Part shown: piece after piece, positions 12,576 through 21,307 of the stretch
Position numbering within the stretch: the stretch's first letter is position 1
Layout of the letters: every line of letters starts with the position of its first letter
Source: Candidatus Multivorans sp.
GTDB lineage: Bacteria; Acidobacteriota; Thermoanaerobaculia; Multivoradales; Multivoraceae
Assembly: GCA_965224025.1 (NCBI GenBank)
Contig: CBDCYE010000001.1
Coordinates: 1 to 64,000, forward strand
Direction of reading: 5' to 3'
DNA length: 64,000 nucleotides
Made by a program: the position numbers and the translations under genes
The notes under the pieces: generated by a model
Databases searched by the model: none
Told to the model about the DNA's origin: nothing
What the model saw: the letters and a program-made list of their open reading frames with translations, nothing else

Positions 12576-14414
12576 TTGACTGCAAGCGGCGCCGCGGCCC
12601 GGTTCCGGGCGGTGGTACGCCTCGTGCATCGCGCCGAGGATGGCGCCTCGAGCGTGCTTCTGGCCGCGATGGTGCTGCTGCCACTGGCGGAGATCGTCGT
12701 CCGCCAGACCGGTACCGGCATTCCCGGCGCGCTTCCCTTCCAACAGCACCTGACGCTGTGGGTTGCCTTCCTCGGCGCGGCCCTGGCGGCGCGCGAGGGG
12801 CGCCTGCTGGCCCTGGCCACCGGAACCCTCCTGCCCGAGGGCCGGTTTCGGAGCGCGGCGGCGGTTCTGACCGGCGGCGTCAGCGCGATGGTGGCGACGC
12901 TGCTGGGGCTGGCCAGTCTGGATCTGGTGCGGATCGAGCACGAGGGCGGCATCGAGATGGCGGCCGGCGTGCCCGTCTGGGTGGGGCAGGCGGTCATGCC
13001 GGTCGGCTTCGCGCTGCTGGCGCTGCGGCTGGCGTGGAAGTCGTCGGATCGCTGGCTGGGGCGCGGTCTGGCGATGCTCGGCATCGCGCTGGCGCTCTGG
13101 ATCAACGCGAACGGGGACGCCTTCGCCGATCGGACGGCGGCGCCCTGGTTGGTGCTGATTCTGGCTTCGACCCTGCTCGGCGGCCCCATCTTCGCCGCCC
13201 TGGGCGGCGCGGCCGTGTTCCTTTTCCTCACCGACTTCGTTCCGCTCGCCGCCATCCCGGCGGAGAGCTACCGGCTCGCGGTGTCTCCGACGCTGGCGGC
13301 GATTCCGCTGTTCACGCTGACCGGCTTCCTGCTCGCGGAGGGCGGGGCGTCCGAACGGCTGCTGCGGGTCTTCCGCGCCATGTTCGGCTGGGCGCCGGGC
13401 GGGACGGCGGTGGTCTGCGCCGTGGTGTGCGCGTTCTTCACCGTGTTCACCGGCGGTTCCGGGGTCACCATCCTGGCGCTCGGGGGTGTTCTCTTCGCCG
13501 CCCTCTCCGCGGACGGCTACCGCGAGCGGTTCTCGCTCGGGCTCCTGACCTCGTCCGGATCCCTGGGTCTTCTGCTACCGCCGGCTCTGCCGCTGATCCT
13601 CTTCGGCATCGTCGCGCAGGTGCCGATCGAGGACCTGTTCATCGGCGGCGTGGTGCCGGGTTTGTTGCTGATCGTCCTGATCGCAGCCTGGGGCGTGCGG
13701 GAGGGCCTGCGCGGCGGCGCCCGCCGCACCCGCGTCTCGATGCCGGAGCTCGGACGGGCAGTCTGGGCCGGAAAGTGGGAGTTGCTGCTCCCCGTCGTCA
13801 TCGTGGGCGCGATCTTCAGCGGCTACGCGACCCTGGTCGAGTCGGCGGCCCTGGCCGCTCTCTACGCCTTCATCGTCCAGTGCGTGATCCACCGCGATCT
13901 GAAGGTGGGGAAGCCACTGATCGCGGTGTTCCGGCAGTGCACCGTGCTGGTCGGCGGGGTGCTGATCATCCTGGTGGTGGCCATGGGGCTCACGAGTTGG
14001 CTGGTGGACGCCCAGGCGGCCCAGCGTCTGGTCGAGCTGGCGCAGGACAACATCGAATCGAAGATCCTCTTCCTGCTGCTGCTCAACGTCTTCCTGCTCC
14101 TGGTCGGCTGCTTGATGGACATCTTCTCGGCCACCGTGGTTGTCGTACCCCTGATCATTCCGATCGGTCTGGCCTTCGGCGTCGACCCGATCCATCTCGG
14201 GATCATCTTCGTCGCCAACCTTGAGCTGGGCTACCTGACGCCGCCGGTGGGCCTCAACCTGTTCCTGGCGTCCTACCGCTTCGAGCGACCGCTCATTCAG
14301 ATCTACCGCGCCGCCGTGCCGGCGCTCGTCATCCTCGGCGTCGGCGTGCTGCTGATCACCTACGTGCCGGTGCTGACCCTGGGTCTCCTGGAGCTGATGG
14401 GCAGGGGCGCCTGA
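12576..14414 (+). CDS. dctM: Fused TRAP small/large permease DctQM
   Basis: Polytopic membrane protein with LWVAFLGAALA, LAAIPLFTLTG, GSLGLLLPP and LGYLTPPVGLNLF. Confidence 0.92.
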   Translation: MTASGAAARFRAVVRLVHRAEDGASSVLLAAMVLLPLAEIVVRQTGTGIPGALPFQQHLTLWVAFLGAALAAREGRLLALATGTLLPEGRFRSAAAVLTGGVSAMVATLLGLASLDLVRIEHEGGIEMAAGVPVWVGQAVMPVGFALLALRLAWKSSDRWLGRGLAMLGIALALWINANGDAFADRTAAPWLVLILASTLLGGPIFAALGGAAVFLFLTDFVPLAAIPAESYRLAVSPTLAAIPLFTLTGFLLAEGGASERLLRVFRAMFGWAPGGTAVVCAVVCAFFTVFTGGSGVTILALGGVLFAALSADGYRERFSLGLLTSSGSLGLLLPPALPLILFGIVAQVPIEDLFIGGVVPGLLLIVLIAAWGVREGLRGGARRTRVSMPELGRAVWAGKWELLLPVVIVGAIFSGYATLVESAALAALYAFIVQCVIHRDLKVGKPLIAVFRQCTVLVGGVLIILVVAMGLTSWLVDAQAAQRLVELAQDNIESKILFLLLLNVFLLLVGCLMDIFSATVVVVPLIIPIGLAFGVDPIHLGIIFVANLELGYLTPPVGLNLFLASYRFERPLIQIYRAAVPALVILGVGVLLITYVPVLTLGLLELMGRGA

Positions 14415-14470
14415 AGTTGGGCAGGGACGACTGAAGGTAGGCAGGGACGACTGAAGATAGGTTGGCTCGA
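14411..14470 (+). repeat. Three imperfect 20-bp tandem repeats
   Basis: CTGAAGTTGGGCAGGGACGA / CTGAAGGTAGGCAGGGACGA / CTGAAGATAGGTTGGCTCGA. Confidence 0.85.
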
Positions 14471-15039
14471 TGAACTGGAAACGTCTGCAGTCGTTCGCCG
14501 TCGTCTGGTCCACGGTCTTCGTGGTTGCCGCGATCCTGGCCGTGGTCGGTGTTCAGGTCGTTCCGCGCGGCGTTCCGGGACTGGTCGGGGCGTTGCATGT
14601 GCTGGTGGCGGCCATCGGCTTCTTCTGCGGCGTCGCGGCGACCCGGCGCCGGGCCGAGATCGACGCCCTGCGCTGGCGCCGCGTGGAGGACTCGGACCTC
14701 ACTTCGAGCGAGCGGGAACACGCCCACCGCGAGGCGGAGTCGGAGCTGAAGGGGGCGAGCGCACGGTTCCTGCTCGTCGGCGTGACCTTGGGGGGCTGGC
14801 TCGCCTACCAGTTGCGCGCCGAGCGTCCGGAGGCGGGCGCCGCGGTCACGGAACTTCTGGGCGGTGAAGCGCCGGAGGTCGCCGCGCCCGGGCAGACCGC
14901 GGCCGAAGCCCTGGCGTCGGCGCCGGCGTACACGGTGAGCGCGTCCGATCTGCTCATCGCGACGCCGCTGATCGCGTTCGGTCTCGGCATGCTGTGGGCG
15001 CGTCGCGGCGCCGCCCGGTCGGCGCCCTACGGCGGCTGA
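14470..15039 (+). CDS. Hypothetical membrane protein
   Basis: 189-aa ORF with about 4 hydrophobic segments, co-oriented with the TRAP genes. Confidence 0.7.
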   Translation: MNWKRLQSFAVVWSTVFVVAAILAVVGVQVVPRGVPGLVGALHVLVAAIGFFCGVAATRRRAEIDALRWRRVEDSDLTSSEREHAHREAESELKGASARFLLVGVTLGGWLAYQLRAERPEAGAAVTELLGGEAPEVAAPGQTAAEALASAPAYTVSASDLLIATPLIAFGLGMLWARRGAARSAPYGG

Positions 15040-15068
15040 GCGAGCGGGGCGCTAGCCCGCATGTTTCA

Positions 15069-16215
15069 GTGCGCCGTGGTAAGGCGCCATTTCCCAGTGG
15101 GTGCGAATCCCGCCCGGCAACTGTCGCTCCAGCCGGAAGCAGTCGGAGCGGATGAAGGAGGTAACGAGATCGTCTGAAGCACTCCGATGAAGAAGGGCCG
15201 CCTTGGGCGGTTCAGCGAGCATGCGGGCCGCAACGCGAGTGAACGCCGAGCAGGCCTCGAAACGGGCAGTGCGGGAGCCGACCCGCCTGAAATACGGGGA
15301 AGGCTGCCACCGGTCGGGAAGCGAGCGACGCTTACACCGCCCGGTTCCGCCGGGGTAGTGGCGGCGGCACGCATGAAGAGGGAGATGGAGGCAACACGGG
15401 AAGCCCCCGATGGTGGCGTTGCACGCGCCAACCGACAACCCGCGAGGGAGAGGTCGTGGCCGTTTGGGGTGGCGGAGAGGCTCGTAGTACCGGGGATGCC
15501 GGGTAACTCCGGCGGAGGGAAGGGGCCTTGGTTCGGGAACAGCGTATGAAGGAGGGAAGGGACGTGAGGACTGGCGAGAGCCTAACCGCCTCAAAGAGTG
15601 TTCGGAGACTCCAGAGGACGCTACATGCGAAAGCGAAGGAAGCTCCAGGCTTCCGGTTCTACTCGCTGGCCGACAAGATGTGGCGCGCCGACGTGCTGTC
15701 CGTTGCCTGGCAGGAGGTCCGCCGCAACGGCGGCGCTGCGGGCGTGGACGGTGAGACGGTAGCGGCGATCGAATCGCGCGGTGTGGACCGATGGCTTGGG
15801 GCACTGTCGATTTGCCGTAGGCTGAGCGAGTTGACGGCGCGGCGCTACGGACTGCTGGAACCAGCGGTGGTGGTGGGACGACTCAACCGGCTGATGACCG
15901 GATGGGCGAACTACTTCACGCTGGGGCAGGTGAGTCCGTCCTACGCGGCGATAGATCGACACGCGACGCGGCGGCTGCGCCAGTGGCTGTGCCGGAAGCA
16001 CAAGGTGAGGTCGGGAAAGAGTGTGCGCTTCCCCGACGAGCGACTCTGGGAAGAGTACGCACTTACGCGCCTGACGGTGCGAACGGCCAGCCTTCCGTGG
16101 GCGAAGGCATGATCCCGTCCGAGAGCCGGATGCGGGAAAATCGCACGTCCGGTTCGATGAGCGGCGACTGGAAACGGAGCCGATCCAAGGCCACCGCGCC
16201 AGTCGTCGACTCTAC
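15069..16215 (+). mobile_element. Group II intron (bacterial IIB, class E/F-like) with internally deleted IEP
   Basis: 5' GTGCG; domain V GAGCCGGATGCGGGAAAATCGCACGTCCGGTTC at 16123-16155 (AGC triad); domain VI ending ACTCTAC; IEP remnant inside. Confidence 0.92.
15528..16112 (+). pseudogene. Group II intron IEP with in-frame deletion of the RT core (RT0 fused to X/maturase domain)
   Basis: RLQRTLHAKAKEAPGFRFYSL...NGGAAGVDG is joined at ~15810 directly to ICRRL...LNRLMTGWANYF...RLRQWLCRKHK. There is no PQG or YADD motif. Confidence 0.85.
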
Positions 16216-16429
16216 CCGAGGCGTCTTAGGAGCTCGTTTTGGAGCTGAGGCGGGCGTTTGAGCGTTGGCCGCGCGCTATCGGTGGGCGTCAGGGGTGGTG
16301 AGCGGGTTCGAGTCGGTGCTCGGAGGCGTGGCAAGGCCGTGCGGCGGCGCTGCTGGGTGGTCTTCGGGCGCACTCCGGCCCGGTAGGGATGCGAGGCGCC
16401 GTATTGTGGGGTCGGGTTGGCGTCCGGCC

Positions 16430-17854
16430 TCAGGCCGGCGGGTGGTAGAGGGGTTTGCTTCGGAGGTTTGCCAGGGCCTGGGCGAAGTCGTTCTGCCAGG
16501 GGAAGGCTGTTGGCAGGTGGATCCAGATGCGGCGGTGTGTGATGCGTATGCGGGCGGCGATCTTCAGGAACTGGAGGCGCAGGGTGCCGCACTGCAGGCG
16601 GGCCTTTGAGGTGCCTGGCAGGGCGAGTCGTCGCACGGCGGCGAGCAGGACGTAGGCGAAGGAGGAGAAGTAGAGGCGCAGTTGATTGGCGGCCATGGTG
16701 GCGGTCGAGGTGCGGTCGGCGAACAGGTCGAGCTGCTGCTCCTTGATGCGGTTCTCCATGTCTCCGCGGGCGCAGTAGAGCTGCTCGTAGAGTGCCTGCT
16801 TGCCGGCGCGGCTTTTCGGCAGATTGGAGACGATGAAGCGAGGATTGCCGCCCTTCTCGAGCCATTCCGCCTTGCCCGCCACGCGCCTCTTGCGAGACCA
16901 GGTGGAGCGTGTCCGGTAGCGGAACTCCCGGAACCGGCGCGACGCCTTGCCGGTGGCGCAGAAGCGCCGCCGCGACTTCGCAAGCGCCTTCGCAAGCCGC
17001 CTCGCAAGGCGCGGATTCTTTGCCAAGCCGAACACGTAGAAGAGTCCCTGCGTCTCGCACCAAGCCATGATCCGTTCCCGGCAGAAGCCCGAATCGCCGC
17101 GCAGGATGATCCGCGTGTCCGGCCACGCTTCTCGAATCCGGGCGACGATCGGCGCCAACTCGCGGACCGTGCCGGCGCTTGCGTCCTCATCCGCGCACCG
17201 CAGCCGCGCAAGCAGCAGGTGCCCGCCGCAGAACGCGTACAGCGGCATGTAGCAGTAGCACCGGTAGTAGCCGTGGAAAAATCGACCCTCCTGAGTCCCG
17301 TGCAGCGGATCGTCCGTCGCGTCGAGGTCCAGCACGATCTCCGCGGGAGCCTCCTCGTGAGCCTCCAGGAACAGCTCCACCAACAAACCGTCCAGTGCCG
17401 CACTGTCCGCCGGAATCCGCTTGTAGCGGTCCACTGAAGCTTTCTCCGGCAGGGACAACTCCAGCCGATTCAACCCGGATGCGCTCGCCAGAGGGCGACC
17501 CTTGTCCCGCGCCCGAAGACGATCCGCTCCCGTGATGTCCCGCTTGCCCACCAACAGCGCCATGAACGCGTCAAGGCGCAGCTGAGTGTGATCATTCAGG
17601 TCCTCGTAGCCCAGAGCCAGACCGTAGACACGCTGAGACACCAGCTCCCGGACCGTGTGCTCCACCGCCGACGGATTCCGGTAGTCCCGAAAACAAGACG
17701 CCATGCGCGCCAACAGGCCGATCCGAGCGTCCGCTTCCCGAAGCAGCAAGCCGCCGCCCTCCGTCGTCAACCGACCGCCGTCGAAACAAGCCGTCACCCG
17801 GCGACGACCGTGGAATCCGAACTCAAGCTGCGACGAAGTACACTCTGTGATCAC
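16430..17854 (-). CDS. IS1380-family DDE transposase
   Basis: FDGGRL, LGYEDLNDH, LDLDATDDPLHGTQEG, LRGDSGF, YCARGDMENRIKE and ANQLRL. Confidence 0.95.
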   Translation of the reverse strand: MITECTSSQLEFGFHGRRRVTACFDGGRLTTEGGGLLLREADARIGLLARMASCFRDYRNPSAVEHTVRELVSQRVYGLALGYEDLNDHTQLRLDAFMALLVGKRDITGADRLRARDKGRPLASASGLNRLELSLPEKASVDRYKRIPADSAALDGLLVELFLEAHEEAPAEIVLDLDATDDPLHGTQEGRFFHGYYRCYCYMPLYAFCGGHLLLARLRCADEDASAGTVRELAPIVARIREAWPDTRIILRGDSGFCRERIMAWCETQGLFYVFGLAKNPRLARRLAKALAKSRRRFCATGKASRRFREFRYRTRSTWSRKRRVAGKAEWLEKGGNPRFIVSNLPKSRAGKQALYEQLYCARGDMENRIKEQQLDLFADRTSTATMAANQLRLYFSSFAYVLLAAVRRLALPGTSKARLQCGTLRLQFLKIAARIRITHRRIWIHLPTAFPWQNDFAQALANLRSKPLYHPPA

Positions 17855-17978
17855 GGGCCTCACTCCTGCGGGTAGACCAAATGTCTGATAACACTTGGAT
17901 TATCCGCCGGATGAGGCCCGATCTCAAATCACCCCGTGAGATATGCGGGCTAGCGCTAGGAGACTGCGCGGCAGAAAA

Positions 17979-18023
17979 CTGGGTGCGCGGGCCTTCTGGC
18001 CCGCATCCGGCGCAAAGCGCCGG
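17979..18023 (+). repeat. REP-like palindromic repeat (intergenic copy)
   Basis: CTGGGTGCGCGGGCCTTCTGGCCCGCATCCGGCGCAAAGCGCCGG; same family as the copies at 23898 and 34507. Confidence 0.8.
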
Positions 18024-18050
18024 TCTCTGGGAGTTCTGCCGCGTAGTCTC

Positions 18051-18347
18051 CTACCGCAGCCGAGCCACGGTCGCGCCCCAACCGCCGCCGCCGGGGCCGC
18101 CGCTCTTGAACGAAACGACCCGCGGGTCGCGCTCCAGCACCTTGCGCACGATCTGACGCTGTACGCCGATGCCGCGGCCGTGAATGATGCGGACCTCGCG
18201 GAAGCCCTTCTCGTACGCGGCGTCGAGGTAGCTCTCAACCACGTCCTTCACGTCGCGGGGCGCGAAGGGGTGCAGGTCGATCTCGTCGCCGATCGGCACC
18301 TCCACGACATCGTCCATGTCGGGCGCGAAGTCGTCTTCGGGGGGCAT
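18051..18347 (-). CDS. Smr/MutS2-domain small protein
   Basis: EIDLH, VRIIHGRGIG and GGWGAT. Confidence 0.9.
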   Translation of the reverse strand: MPPEDDFAPDMDDVVEVPIGDEIDLHPFAPRDVKDVVESYLDAAYEKGFREVRIIHGRGIGVQRQIVRKVLERDPRVVSFKSGGPGGGGWGATVARLR

Positions 18348-18361
18348 GGCAGTGGCAATGC

Positions 18362-21307
18362 CTAGAACAGCTTGAGGACGGCGATGAAGGCGCTCCAGCC
18401 GTCGTCCGGTCCCGCGAGCGCGGCGCCCACGTCCATGTTGACCACCGTGCCCCAGGGGCCGATGAAGGTGCCGACGATGCCGGCGCCGGCGAGCAGCTCA
18501 TTGTCCAGGCCGGAGGCCATGTCCGTCGCCCAGGCGGCGTCGCCGATCAGGTCGATACGGAAGATCTGGCCGAGTTCGAAGCCGTAGGTCAGGTGCGCCG
18601 CCGCCGCCCGCTCGGCACGGACCTTGTCGCTCTGGTAGCCATGGACGGTCACGTCCGAGAAGAACCCGAACTCGTACTTGCTGAAGCGGTCCAGGTCGGC
18701 GCCGTCGACGTATTCCACTGACAGGCCGATCTTCTGGAACTTCGGCAGGTGCCAGGTCTTGGCGACGCCCACGTTCCACAGCGTGTAGCTGTCCGGGGTC
18801 AGGTTGGCGACGCCGAGGCCCCAGGGCTCCCAATCGCCTCGCAGGTTCCAGGCGCCCCCGAGCACCAGCCGGTAGCCGGAACGGGTGTAGCGGAGGGTGG
18901 TCCCCAGGCTGTGACTCAGATGATCCGTGGGCAGGACGAAGTCCTCGCTGGTCTCGTCGGCGCGCTGGAACTTGTGCCAGGACAGCTCGTAGCGGAAGTC
19001 GAGCTTGGCGTAGCTGCCGAGCGGGCGGCCGAGGCTGAAGTCCATGTTCGGGCGGAGCCGTTCCACGTTCTCCTGCGGCGACTCCCGGCCGTCGCGGTAG
19101 AGAGTGTCCTCGCCCGCGAACGCCAGCGCGAAGATGTCGAAGCCGGCATCCCAGCGCGAGCCGAACAGGCTCGGGTTGGCGACATTGGCGAGGATCAGCG
19201 GACCGGCGATGAACAGGTCGGCCTGGGCGCCCGTGCCGCGCCAGTCGAACGCCAGCCAGTTCACGCCGCCCAGGGGCAGGGGGCCGTCCTGGGCCTCGTC
19301 GTAGAAGGCGCCGCCGACGATGAACATCCGGGTCTTGTCGTCCTCCTTGACCACCCGCTCGCCGGTGTCCTTGTCCACGGCCAGGTAGCGAAGCCCCACC
19401 TCGGTGTCGCGCACCATCGTCGCCTCGGAGGCCAGGGTCGCCTGCCGGCGGGTCTCGAAGTCGGTCGGGTTGATCGAGATACCGGTGAGTTCGGTCAACC
19501 CTTCCACGACCGTTGTCGCGTTCAGCAGGGAGAACAGCCGCTGACTGACCACCCGGGCCGGCAGCCAGTACGACGACCGCTCCCACGCCGCCGGCTCGCC
19601 GTTCTCGTCGACCGGGCTGTAGAAGGTGGTTTCGTCGTTCGAGAGCACGTCGCCGGTCAGGCCGAGCTGGACCGCGCGGGTCTTCACACGGGCGTAGATC
19701 TTGCGGTCCACCCACACCGTGCCGCGGAACAGGCTGCGGCCCTCCCCCAGCGCCGCCGCCGGCTCGAACTCGACGACCCAGGTGTCGCGGCCCTCGACCG
19801 TTGCGGTGCCCCGCAGCCGGTAGCGGTACTCCTTGGTGAAGGTGATCGCGGCGGGCATCGCGGCCGCCTTCTCCGGCTGGATCAGGGGGATCTCGGGGAT
19901 CTTCTTGCGCCGCCAGCGGATGCCGTTGACGAAGAAGTTGTCCCAGGCCCAGTCGAAACCGGCCTCCTGGCGGAAGAAGAAGGGGCCCTGGAAGGTCACG
20001 TCGACCGTCTGGATGCCGGTGCCGAGCTGGAAGCGCAGCGAGGTCGTGTTGGTGGCGCTGTAGTTCGCGATCCGCCTCGACTGGTCGTCCTCGAAGGCCT
20101 GCAGCCGCCTCAGGATCTCGCCGACCGGCACCTGGCGCGTGTCGGCGACGGTCAGGGCCTCTTCGATGCTCGTAGCACCGTCGAGGTTGACCGCGAGATC
20201 GCGGTCGAGCCGGAACACGAACGGCCCGTCGGTTTCGGTCAGCTCGAGTTCGTAGCCGTTCCGGGTGCGCCGGCCGCCGAACAGCAGTTCGGTTTCGCCG
20301 GTCGCGGGATCGAAGCGGGCGGGCGACCCGATCTGCCGGTCGCTGAAGCTGAGCGTGACCGGTGCACCTGCCGCCGGTGGCGACACGACGATCCGCAGGC
20401 TCAGATCCTCGCCGTGGACGAAGCTCCAGGCCGCAGCACCCGCAGGCGTCGAGTAGGGGTCGAAGGCGACATCGCCGGAGAACTCCTGGGCGATCAGGCG
20501 GGCGGCTCGAACCGCTGCGGCGTCGCCGGCGCCGTCGCCGGAGAGTGCGAACAGGGACAGGGTGGCCCCGGCCTCTGCCTCGGCCGCCGCGCGCACCAGC
20601 AGGTTGCCCCCGGCGGCTCCGCCGGTGGCCGTAGTGCCGGCCGGACCCGGCTCGACCGCGACGAGGGCATCCGGGTCCAGTTCACGGATCAGTCCCCGCA
20701 GCGCGCCCAGATCGACGGACTCCGAGGTGACCACCGCCACTCCGTCCAGGTAGGCGTCCAGTTCCTGGCCGTAGAGTGCCCGGAGCAACTCCGGATCGCC
20801 CGGCAGCGGCGCCGAGACAACGGCGGCATCCGGCTGCGCCCCCGAAACGGCGACCGCCGCCCGCTTCAGCGCCAGCGCGTACTCCTGGATCTGCAGCGCT
20901 TCATTCCTTAGCTCTCCCGGCCAGACGAGCTGAAAGAAGGACCCTGCCTGGGCCGACCGGGCGAGGTTGGCCAGCCGCTCCAGCTCCGGCGTCAACTCGT
21001 CCGCGCGGTCGGCCGCCGGCGGCGGCGCGGCGAAGCGCACCGCGTACCAGGGAGTGGCGCCGCTGTCGCGCAACCGCGACGCCGCCTCGGCCGCCGCGCC
21101 GACTTCGGCCTCATCCGTGAGGTCGACGGGCCACTTGACCACGAGAAGCGCCTCGTCCGCCAGTTCCGGCAGCGCACCCAGGATCTCCGCCGCTCCGCCT
21201 GGGTCCTCAGTCGCCAGACCGACACAGGGATTGCAGGGCAACTGCCCGGCCGCCGGCACTGCTACAGCGAGCACGACAGCTGTTGCAAGAAGAGCTTGTT
21301 TCGTCAT
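18362..21307 (-). CDS. Large exported/outer-membrane hypothetical protein
   Basis: Signal peptide, glycoside-hydrolase-like N-terminal part, YRYRL...GTVWVD segment and a beta-rich C-terminus ending in Phe. Confidence 0.7.
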   Translation of the reverse strand: MTKQALLATAVVLAVAVPAAGQLPCNPCVGLATEDPGGAAEILGALPELADEALLVVKWPVDLTDEAEVGAAAEAASRLRDSGATPWYAVRFAAPPPAADRADELTPELERLANLARSAQAGSFFQLVWPGELRNEALQIQEYALALKRAAVAVSGAQPDAAVVSAPLPGDPELLRALYGQELDAYLDGVAVVTSESVDLGALRGLIRELDPDALVAVEPGPAGTTATGGAAGGNLLVRAAAEAEAGATLSLFALSGDGAGDAAAVRAARLIAQEFSGDVAFDPYSTPAGAAAWSFVHGEDLSLRIVVSPPAAGAPVTLSFSDRQIGSPARFDPATGETELLFGGRRTRNGYELELTETDGPFVFRLDRDLAVNLDGATSIEEALTVADTRQVPVGEILRRLQAFEDDQSRRIANYSATNTTSLRFQLGTGIQTVDVTFQGPFFFRQEAGFDWAWDNFFVNGIRWRRKKIPEIPLIQPEKAAAMPAAITFTKEYRYRLRGTATVEGRDTWVVEFEPAAALGEGRSLFRGTVWVDRKIYARVKTRAVQLGLTGDVLSNDETTFYSPVDENGEPAAWERSSYWLPARVVSQRLFSLLNATTVVEGLTELTGISINPTDFETRRQATLASEATMVRDTEVGLRYLAVDKDTGERVVKEDDKTRMFIVGGAFYDEAQDGPLPLGGVNWLAFDWRGTGAQADLFIAGPLILANVANPSLFGSRWDAGFDIFALAFAGEDTLYRDGRESPQENVERLRPNMDFSLGRPLGSYAKLDFRYELSWHKFQRADETSEDFVLPTDHLSHSLGTTLRYTRSGYRLVLGGAWNLRGDWEPWGLGVANLTPDSYTLWNVGVAKTWHLPKFQKIGLSVEYVDGADLDRFSKYEFGFFSDVTVHGYQSDKVRAERAAAAHLTYGFELGQIFRIDLIGDAAWATDMASGLDNELLAGAGIVGTFIGPWGTVVNMDVGAALAGPDDGWSAFIAVLKLF

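Follow-up and report, generated by a model that had tools for sequence, protein, structure and literature searches.

The window analysed here, bases 1–64000 of contig 2 of the Candidatus Multivorans genome G000 (5.14 Mb in three contigs), contains a group II intron lodged in the end of an insertion sequence (IS) of the IS1380 family. The IS lies on the minus strand at 15056–17949 and measures 1747 bp without the intron, its limits being set by transposase profile matches and by comparison of its ends with the copies in the sister genome G026. Its transposase gene (16430–17863, minus strand) is open over 477 aa and matches NF033539 with 390.7 bits (cut-off 180) and PF13701 with 489 bits (cut-off 34.7). 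Members of the IS1380 family possess short terminal inverted repeats and generate a 4-bp target duplication, and both traits are found here together with the DDE transposase. The IS ends are CCCGCATGTTTCAC and CCCGCATATCTCAC; the transposase-proximal end, read inward on the minus strand, is CTAG followed by CCCGCATATCTCAC (17937–17953), and on the plus strand the sequence ...GTGAGATATGCGGG stops at 17949, with CTAG at 17950–17953. The same tetranucleotide precedes the left end (15052–15055), both having been read from the sequence, and CTAG (once TTAG/CTAA) flanks eight copies of the IS on both sides. Since the flanks overlap by 4 nt at two empty sites in G000 that match IS copies of G026, CTAG represents a 4-bp target duplication outside the IS. 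The interval 15052–17953 proposed in the initial annotation thus covers the IS and takes in both duplications as well.

The intron, an internally deleted form of 1147 nt, extends from 15069 to 16215 on the plus strand, as delimited with Rfam, intronless IS copies and full-length relatives. It starts with GTGCG (GTGCGCC...) at 15069 and is closed at 16215 by GTCGACTCTAC (...CTCTAC), directly after which CCGAGGCGTCTTAGG (CCGAGG...) begins at 16216. Its 5′ exon ends with the 13 outermost nt of the terminal repeat distal to the transposase, CCCGCATGTTTCA (15056–15068, plus strand). The location 13 bp inside the IS end and the antisense orientation relative to the transposase, whose gene is on the minus strand, had been noted initially and are both read directly from the sequence. 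Rfam identifies domain 1 (D1; RF02003 at 15095–15238, 89.1 bits, cut-off 49) and domains 5 and 6 (D5 and D6; RF00029 at 16121–16215, 50.1 bits, cut-off 40), with no other match anywhere in the 64-kb window. D5 is placed at 16123–16155 (plus strand) by the Rfam match and the fold, and D6 at 16159–16212 (plus strand), its length reduced by about 57 nt relative to the related full-length introns; the minimum free energy (MFE) fold of D6 shows A16209 bulged out, 7 nt before the intron 3′ end. The 5′ GUGYG motif, the D1 model, D5, D6 with its bulged A and the exon pairings described below assign the element to the IIB type.

The precision of the insertion is apparent from G026. This genome has the identical intron and IS at the same locus, together with seven further IS copies at other loci, 99% identical and all intronless. 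Each of the seven is continuous across the site, reading CTAG (once TTAG), CCCGCATGTTTCA and then CCGATGCGGC (CCGATG...). The intron therefore lies exactly between IS nt 13 and 14, with nothing duplicated, and its removal restores the IS tip, as had been anticipated.

The surroundings of the IS show some further features. Between G000 and G026:C2 there are 68 differences in 13569–14891 and only 1 in 14892–19460, so that the latter segment (IS, intron and downstream flank) looks like a recently exchanged or converted one. A palindromic element of about 100 nt (17954–18060, MFE −77.9 kcal/mol) directly adjoins the IS; G000 contains 63 occurrences of its 19-nt core (at most two mismatches), and the flank of at least one other G026 IS copy (L038) resembles it. 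The IS may prefer CTAG at the foot of such REP-like repeats. At G000:C1:27142–27202, where G026 has a full IS copy (L045), an isolated 61-nt piece of the transposase-proximal IS end (95%) is left, together with CTAG.

Target recognition by the intron RNA

Homologues came from two sets: 61 relatives, of which 16 gave a match, and 300 genomes of the order, of which 48 did so at E ≤ 1e-10. Exon-binding sites (EBS) and intron-binding sites (IBS) were evaluated by comparing cognate with non-cognate loop/exon pairing in 16 homologues over 20000 permutations. EBS1 is TGAAATA (15288–15294, plus strand), located by covariation and consensus fold in the loop of a CCCG/CGGG hairpin, and its partner IBS1 is TGTTTCA (15062–15068, plus strand; positions −7 to −1). 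In the window copy all 7 of 7 pairs form, one of them G-U. Across the 16 introns the cognate mean is 5.94 of 7 pairs, versus 2.94 for non-cognate combinations, and none of the 20000 permutations attains the observed sum; these permutation counts overstate independence, the homologues being related. The EBS1 loop and the last seven exon bases co-vary between copies, as exemplified by CAGAAGC/GCTTCTG, TCTGTCC/GGACGGA, ACTTACG/CGTAAGT and TGATTTT/AGGATCA, and a plasmid relative outside the 16 follows the same rule (GACATAA with TTATGTC). Furthermore, RNAalifold leaves the loop without pairs in its consensus of 15 sequences. The initial placement of EBS1, including its hairpin and its seven pairs, is confirmed by these results.

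For EBS2 the covariation points to a different segment from the one first proposed. The sequence CGGGC (15263–15267, plus strand), on the unpaired 5′ strand of an internal loop, forms 5 of 5 pairs with GCCCG (15055–15059, plus strand; positions −14 to −10), an IBS2 that includes the G of CTAG. Its cognate sum is attained by 11 of 20000 permutations over the 16 introns, and equivalent pairs occur in other homologues (CGTTC/GAACG, TTTT/AAAA and GGGT/ACCC). This segment lies 7 nt upstream of the earlier candidate, TGCGGG at 15270–15275, which would pair with CCCGCA at 15056–15061 and confine the target exactly to the IS tip. Six Watson–Crick pairs are indeed possible between those two sequences, and other tip-sited introns (L033, L082, L083 and L076) offer 5–6 contiguous pairs of the same segment with CCCGC(A). 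The complementarity is nonetheless at chance level, with a cognate mean of 3.94 against 4.07 for non-cognate combinations and 17248 of 20000 permutations attaining it. Moreover, the segment belongs to a conserved helix, in which GCGGGA (15271–15276, plus strand) is paired with TTCCGC (15345–15350) in the RNAalifold fold of 15 sequences. The helix is kept in all 15, with compensatory changes at 4 of its 6 pairs (pair 27/108, CG:10 UA:5; pair 30/105, AU:7 GC:7 GU:1), and the Rfam RF02005 alignment pairs the segment likewise. The earlier EBS2 is accordingly very improbable; of the two elements first put forward, EBS1 falls in a hairpin loop and the proposed EBS2 falls in a helix.

EBS3 is G15358 (plus strand), which pairs with the first 3′-exon base C16216 (plus strand), the IBS3 and nt 14 of the IS. 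It is the only variable D1 column complementary to that base in at least 11 of 12 introns, with 10 Watson–Crick pairs, 1 G-U pair and 1 miss.

The target read by the RNA thus extends from G−14 to G−10 and, after a 2-nt linker, from T−7 to A−1, followed by C+1; in IS terms, it comprises the last base of CTAG and IS nt 1–4, 7–13 and 14. Because IBS2 takes in the G of CTAG, the site is the IS tip plus one flanking base, with C+1 added through EBS3, rather than exactly the tip. The location of the site in a terminal repeat means that each IS offers it twice, once per strand and always from the outside inwards. In the window IS the second site, the transposase-proximal repeat tip CCCGCATATCTCA (17937–17949, minus strand), is an unoccupied near-cognate sequence with one EBS1 mismatch, precisely the single mismatch that had been noted initially.

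The lineage at IS1380-type tips and at other sites

The same insertion position recurs well beyond the window. Of the 29 distinct 5′ junctions in the order, 11 are situated 13 nt into a tip of the form CCYG......TCA. A first tally of 10 of 28 comprised G000/G026, G075 (two), G288, G128, G071, G127 (two) and G179 (two), and one more was found in G127; the tips are preceded by CTAG, TTAG, ATAG, GTAG or CTAA. Loci L013, L063 (G165), L064, L065, L074 and L075 were dropped from the junction counts, since their match began at query 23–26 or GTGYG was missing at the projected start; G165 figures in the tally of homologues of the order alone.

Use of the opposite repeat is documented in G026, where a second, 5′-truncated intron remnant, 91%-related, ends ...CTCTAC and is followed by CCGAGGGGGGTTGAGATCGGG. 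This following sequence corresponds to the transposase-proximal repeat, from its nt 14 on, of a second IS, 77% related, that carries CCCGCATATTTCA as its opposite tip. The lineage thus occupies either repeat at nt 13|14 (distal in the window, proximal in the second IS), reading inwards from the outside in every case. As the site is repeated on both strands, the window intron is antisense to the transposase and its relative in the second IS is sense. Directly upstream of the 5′-cut remnant (L092, G026:C2:~1910400–1911000) lies the end of an open reading frame (ORF) that appears by eye to be IS3-type integrase-like.

Miniature inverted-repeat transposable elements (MITEs) are occupied as well, one of 176 bp in G288 and one of 181 bp at the G075 C18 site, both bearing 13-nt inverted tips that match perfectly or nearly so. 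When the window transposase was used as a tblastn query, no IS1380 gene appeared next to the introns of G075, G288 C21, G128 or G071. A complete IS1380-family element, with 58% protein identity, does occur in G288; it ends CTAG + CCCGCATTTCTCA, a 13-nt tip identical to the 5′ exon of the intron there. Divergent IS1380-type genes were detected elsewhere in G075, G071 and G127 by a Pfam family search, and also in G128; none was found in G179 or G286.

A wider scan, covering one genome per species, used the pattern CCYG-N6-TCA-GTRCGCCGTG, in which the YTAR flank is not specified, and gave at least 119 matching stretches. Among the matches listed, 44 of 80 loci have YTAR directly upstream (CTAG 23, TTAG 11, CTAA 6 and TTAA 4), versus about 1.25 expected by chance; in the other 36, most of the "tips" are rich in GC, and these loci may have matched by chance. 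Rfam, applied to 18 of the YTAR loci, places RF02003 immediately next to the junction in 14, which belong to Acidobacteriota, Gamma- and Alphaproteobacteria and Verrucomicrobiota. Four of these tip loci (L127, L139, L125 and L162) span only about 0.7–0.9 kb from the junction to D6. Their hosts include Vicinamibacterales, a Versatilivoraceae metagenome-assembled genome (MAG) and a Paracoccaceae MAG, and the introns, each with RF02003 plus RF00029, leave no room for a protein.

Collectively, these comparisons support a specialisation for IS1380 tips as a property of a widespread intron lineage, in which the EBS1 loop appears to track local tip variants. That an unspecialised lineage retrotransposed ectopically into an IS end on a single occasion is hardly credible: the nearest full-length relatives in the genus do lie at other sites, but the same nt 13|14 position is found at no fewer than 11 independent sites of the order and at 44 of the 80 listed scan loci, in many phyla.

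Another explanation is that composites of an IS or MITE with its intron spread by DNA transposition, a single ancient insertion hitch-hiking while the EBS/IBS pairing is kept for splicing. The outer 13 nt of the roughly 14-nt repeat are intact, so the transposase might still use an intron-bearing end. In G127, intron remnants are found at two loci with the same tip CCTGCCCTTCTCA and different flanks, and at one of them a matching inverted tip follows about 1.1 kb downstream. In G026, by contrast, the intron is present in only 1 of 8 IS copies, and that copy has 10 private differences, whereas the seven intronless ones differ from each other at 0–4 positions. At least two of the intronless copies occupy sites that are empty in G000, and this, together with their low mutual divergence, points to the intronless lineage as the transposing one in this one genome; the intron-bearing IS has no daughter copies in G000 or G026. 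Copies of the composite at several loci with distinct flanks, the check suggested with the initial annotation, were not seen: it occupies the same single locus in both genomes. In addition, the lineage is housed in elements of several kinds, namely one repeat of a full IS, the opposite repeat of a second IS with 77% relatedness, and MITEs, and its EBS1 changes along with the tip. Nothing seen at the window locus favours hitch-hiking, which is unlikely as the main route of spread. Retrohoming into the tip, directed by EBS/IBS pairing, agrees better with these observations.

Several results weigh against tip-directed retrohoming and limit how far it can be generalised. For 18 of the 29 junctions in the order, the site is something other than an IS1380 tip. 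The closest full-length relatives (84–86%; G025, G033 and G019), although of the same genus, are not at tips and have different EBS1 loops; G025 and G033, a remnant on G000 contig 1 and three G012 copies follow ...GCGCTCACTNCGCT. Another four are situated some 17 nt beyond an apparent tRNA 3′ end, and one full-length intron (L089, G192:C1), with 7 of 7 EBS1 pairs, is inside an IS6/IS240-family transposase gene (PF13610, 124.7 bits). Four plasmid relatives (from Planctomyces, Bradyrhizobium, Buttiauxella and Microvirga) are likewise not at IS1380 tips. Some tip-sited copies show weak EBS1 pairing (4 of 7 in G075 C20 and 5 of 7 in G128), and no second repeat or transposase is present in the examined flank of G075 C20, G128, G071 or G127 C178. 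The EBS loops were extracted with a clade-fitted pattern that failed at 7 of 23 loci, 5 of which were long enough to contain the EBS region, but with an intron match that ended short of it. In the D1 tree the tip-sited introns are scattered and form no single clade, so that tip-homing may be ancestral, with several retargetings, or may have arisen more than once. Finally, in two sponge metatranscriptome runs (X1 and X2), the contigs on 14700–16500 leave the exons uncovered; they cover conserved intron parts (15066–16224) with 90–99% likeness and high summed depth, and they represent related introns in the sponge communities, not the window locus. The proposal that the lineage targets IS1380 repeats consequently holds for the 11 junctions, for both repeats and for MITEs, and not for the remaining 18; relatives at unrelated flanks, the finding that was to count against it, do exist, and among them are the closest ones.

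The sites elsewhere have some features of their own. Another intron of the lineage in G000, in a more advanced state of decay (G000:C1:4442634–4443709, L003–L005), follows ...GCGCTCACTGCGCT, and similar 5′ sequence precedes L090, L091, L015, L025 and L032, which comprise the full-length relatives of G025 and G033 and three G012 copies at contig ends. In G025, a Topo VI-A/Spo11-like gene precedes the intron site by 127 nt. L071, L078, L080 and L081 (G290, G288 C27, G292 and G283) share the 5′ exon ...AATCAA-N-(A/G)-N-TT(A/G) and are a separate retargeted group; an apparent tRNA 3′ end (...CCACCA) is situated about 17 nt upstream in three of them (G290, G288 C27 and G283). L009 (G019:C199), an 86%-related intron with weak EBS1 pairing, lies about 36 nt inside a degenerate-looking IS1380-type end, CCCGCAGGCGACGGTGAGGTCTAGGAGCTCGTCATG, and may be an ectopic insertion.

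Decay of the window copy and proposed history

Full-length relatives measure 1976–2011 nt and encode proteins of about 450 aa that contain RVT_1 and GIIM only, with about 31 residues after GIIM. As nothing follows the maturase domain, an endonuclease is absent. The window copy retains a remnant ORF of 194 aa (15528–16112, plus strand), in which the RT0 N-terminus of the reverse transcriptase (RT) is fused in frame to the maturase (X) and RT1–7 are missing; the domain search returns GIIM only (53 bits). Residues 6–94 and 94–194 of the remnant align to 1–89 and 353–453 of the 453-aa G025 protein, whose residues 90–352 are absent (263 codons, in frame). At the nucleotide level, 792 nt were lost between intron positions 741 and 742, as was the distal part of D6. 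These bounds were taken from BLAST, because the MAFFT global alignment against the full-length G025 intron misplaced the large gap.

Lacking RT domains 1–7, the window copy is not an autonomous mobile intron, while the catalytic landmarks (GTGCG, the D5 hairpin, the D6 helix with bulged A16209 and all EBS) are retained. No intact group II RT/maturase was found in G000, where no TIGR04416 match exceeds the cut-off of 300 and the best one, a broken remnant on contig 1, reaches 183.9 bits; other traces of the lineage in this genome amount to two fragments. In G026, 15 of 16 IS tips are empty, though 7 cognate tips are identical to the occupied one, which fits an intron that is no longer mobile. 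Judged from these sequences, the window copy is a relic no longer able to move. ORF-less or ORF-deleted group II introns that rely on the protein of a relative are known, as in the TeI3 family of Thermosynechococcus, and the window copy resembles them in having lost RT coding and kept its ribozyme. It differs in being single and in the absence of a helper from G000. Since there is a single copy, at one locus common to two genomes and with no helper, it looks like a case of decay rather than a member of a multiplying non-autonomous family.

In a further run (X3), one contig joins CTAGCCCGCATGTTTCA to 16216 onward, at a depth of 709.6 versus about 90 for the flank. It was considered as a candidate spliced RNA and rejected, being read as DNA of the multi-copy intronless IS.

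The most plausible sequence of events would be as follows. First, an IS1380-family IS would have inserted into a CTAG situated 13 nt past the stop codon that closes the ORF at 14470–15039. A IIB-type group II intron, with a protein containing RT and maturase and no endonuclease, would later have entered it by retrohoming. The intron RNA would have recognised the last CTAG base and IS nt 1–4 through EBS2, nt 7–13 through EBS1 and nt 14 through EBS3, and would have reverse-spliced between nt 13 and 14. The copy would then have lost 263 RT codons and the distal D6, leaving the relic. Retrohoming into an IS1380-type tip read by EBS/IBS pairing, followed by decay, is very probably the correct account. 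By analogy with the endonuclease-less introns RmInt1 and RmInt2, reverse splicing may take place at replication forks, where one site per strand could be of benefit.

A broader scenario is possible, though rather doubtful: an old, cosmopolitan partnership between endonuclease-less RF02003-type introns and IS1380 across phyla, in which the intron would read the last CTAG base and the first 14 nt of the IS with an EBS1 fitted to local tips, embracing full elements and MITEs, decaying to protein-less forms of 0.7–1.1 kb and acting as a brake on IS1380 spread. Intron-bearing ends may be transposition dead ends, as the G026 copy without daughters illustrates; if that is true, the intron would be a natural brake on the family, to which ISEcp1, a mobiliser of resistance genes in other bacteria, also belongs. 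The wider pattern of a cosmopolitan lineage tied to IS1380 tips and MITEs is of more interest than the single relic. It indicates that homing into transposon end-repeats is not peculiar to one rhizobial intron (RmInt2, compared below) and extends to an unrelated class and another widespread IS family. Furthermore, it supports the view of end-repeats as good homes for introns, since they do no harm to the host, exist in many copies and occur on both strands. Annotators gain an explanation for some IS1380 ends and MITEs that seem "split" by 0.7–2 kb; for engineering, the lineage supplies natural EBS/IBS variants for an endonuclease-less IIB scaffold.

Comparison with known introns

In the literature searched, which left most subscription journals outside, no description of a pairing between IS1380 and a group II intron was found, and RmInt2 is the sole precedent. 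The initial annotation had cited RmInt1 as a precedent for IS targeting; RmInt2 is closer, since it homes into both repeats of ISRm17 (PMC4615759). All copies of RmInt2 in Sinorhizobium meliloti GR4 are described as residing in ISRm17 inverted repeats (PMC4615759, PMC5894124), and retrohoming into a cloned repeat, with a lagging-strand bias, is demonstrated by experiment (PMC4615759). The authors argue there that the repeats double the number of sites and guarantee one on the lagging-strand template (PMC4615759, PMC5894124). The target given for RmInt2 consists of a 5-nt IBS2 at −14 to −10, a 2-nt linker at −9/−8, a 7-nt IBS1 and IBS3 at +1 (PMC4615759).

The window intron resembles RmInt2 in belonging to an endonuclease-less IIB lineage, in having its sites in IS terminal repeats, two per IS and on opposite strands, and in the layout of its target, with IBS2 at −14 to −10, a 2-nt linker, a 7-nt IBS1 and IBS3 at +1. 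As in class D, RVT_1 and GIIM are the sole domains of the proteins of its full-length relatives, and some 31 residues follow GIIM. By eye, there is no trace of the motif LX3AX3PXLF[V/A]HW that PMC4615759 gives for the C-terminus of class D proteins, the G025 protein ending in LTRLRVRTTRFPWAKA (...RFPWAKA) and the window remnant in LTRLTVRTASLPWAKA (...SLPWAKA). In contrast to RmInt1 and RmInt2, whose D1 in GR4 matches RF01999, the window D1 matches RF02003, and the nine proteins encoded on the GR4 plasmid NC_019848.2 are only 32–33% identical to those of the window lineage. The elements also differ: PMC10194956 calls ISRm17 an ISNCY/ISDol1 element, and tblastn of the ISRm17 flanks examined shows no similarity to the window transposase. 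Finally, the mobility of RmInt2 is experimental, whereas the window copy is defective and known from its sequence.

Four of the nine GR4 copies follow CTAGTGCCCRTCCATA, 16 nt inside a conserved end, and five follow an exon like that of ISRm2011-2; judging by these exons, the former are taken to be RmInt2 and the latter RmInt1. The first assignment is made because CTAGTGCCCRTCCATA fits the selected CTAGTTC with position −11 unpaired, as given in PMC4615759. RmInt1, which resides in ISRm2011-2 of the IS630 family, is comparable to the window intron in lacking an endonuclease and in having an IS as its home, read via EBS1, EBS2 and EBS3. It differs in that its site is in the IS body, not in a terminal repeat, and in its class D affiliation and RF01999-type D1.

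Class C (IIC) introns are characterised by the lack of EBS2, by insertion after hairpins or terminators and by a shortened D5. The window lineage, in contrast, has a covarying EBS2, its D5 aligns over the full RF00029 model, and its target is a linear 15-nt sequence common to sites with unrelated upstream DNA. The window intron is thus neither class D nor class C, and no link of RF02003 to a Zimmerly class was found in the searchable literature. On the sequence comparison, it shows the same behaviour as RmInt2 in ISRm17, with neither the intron nor the IS belonging to the same family.

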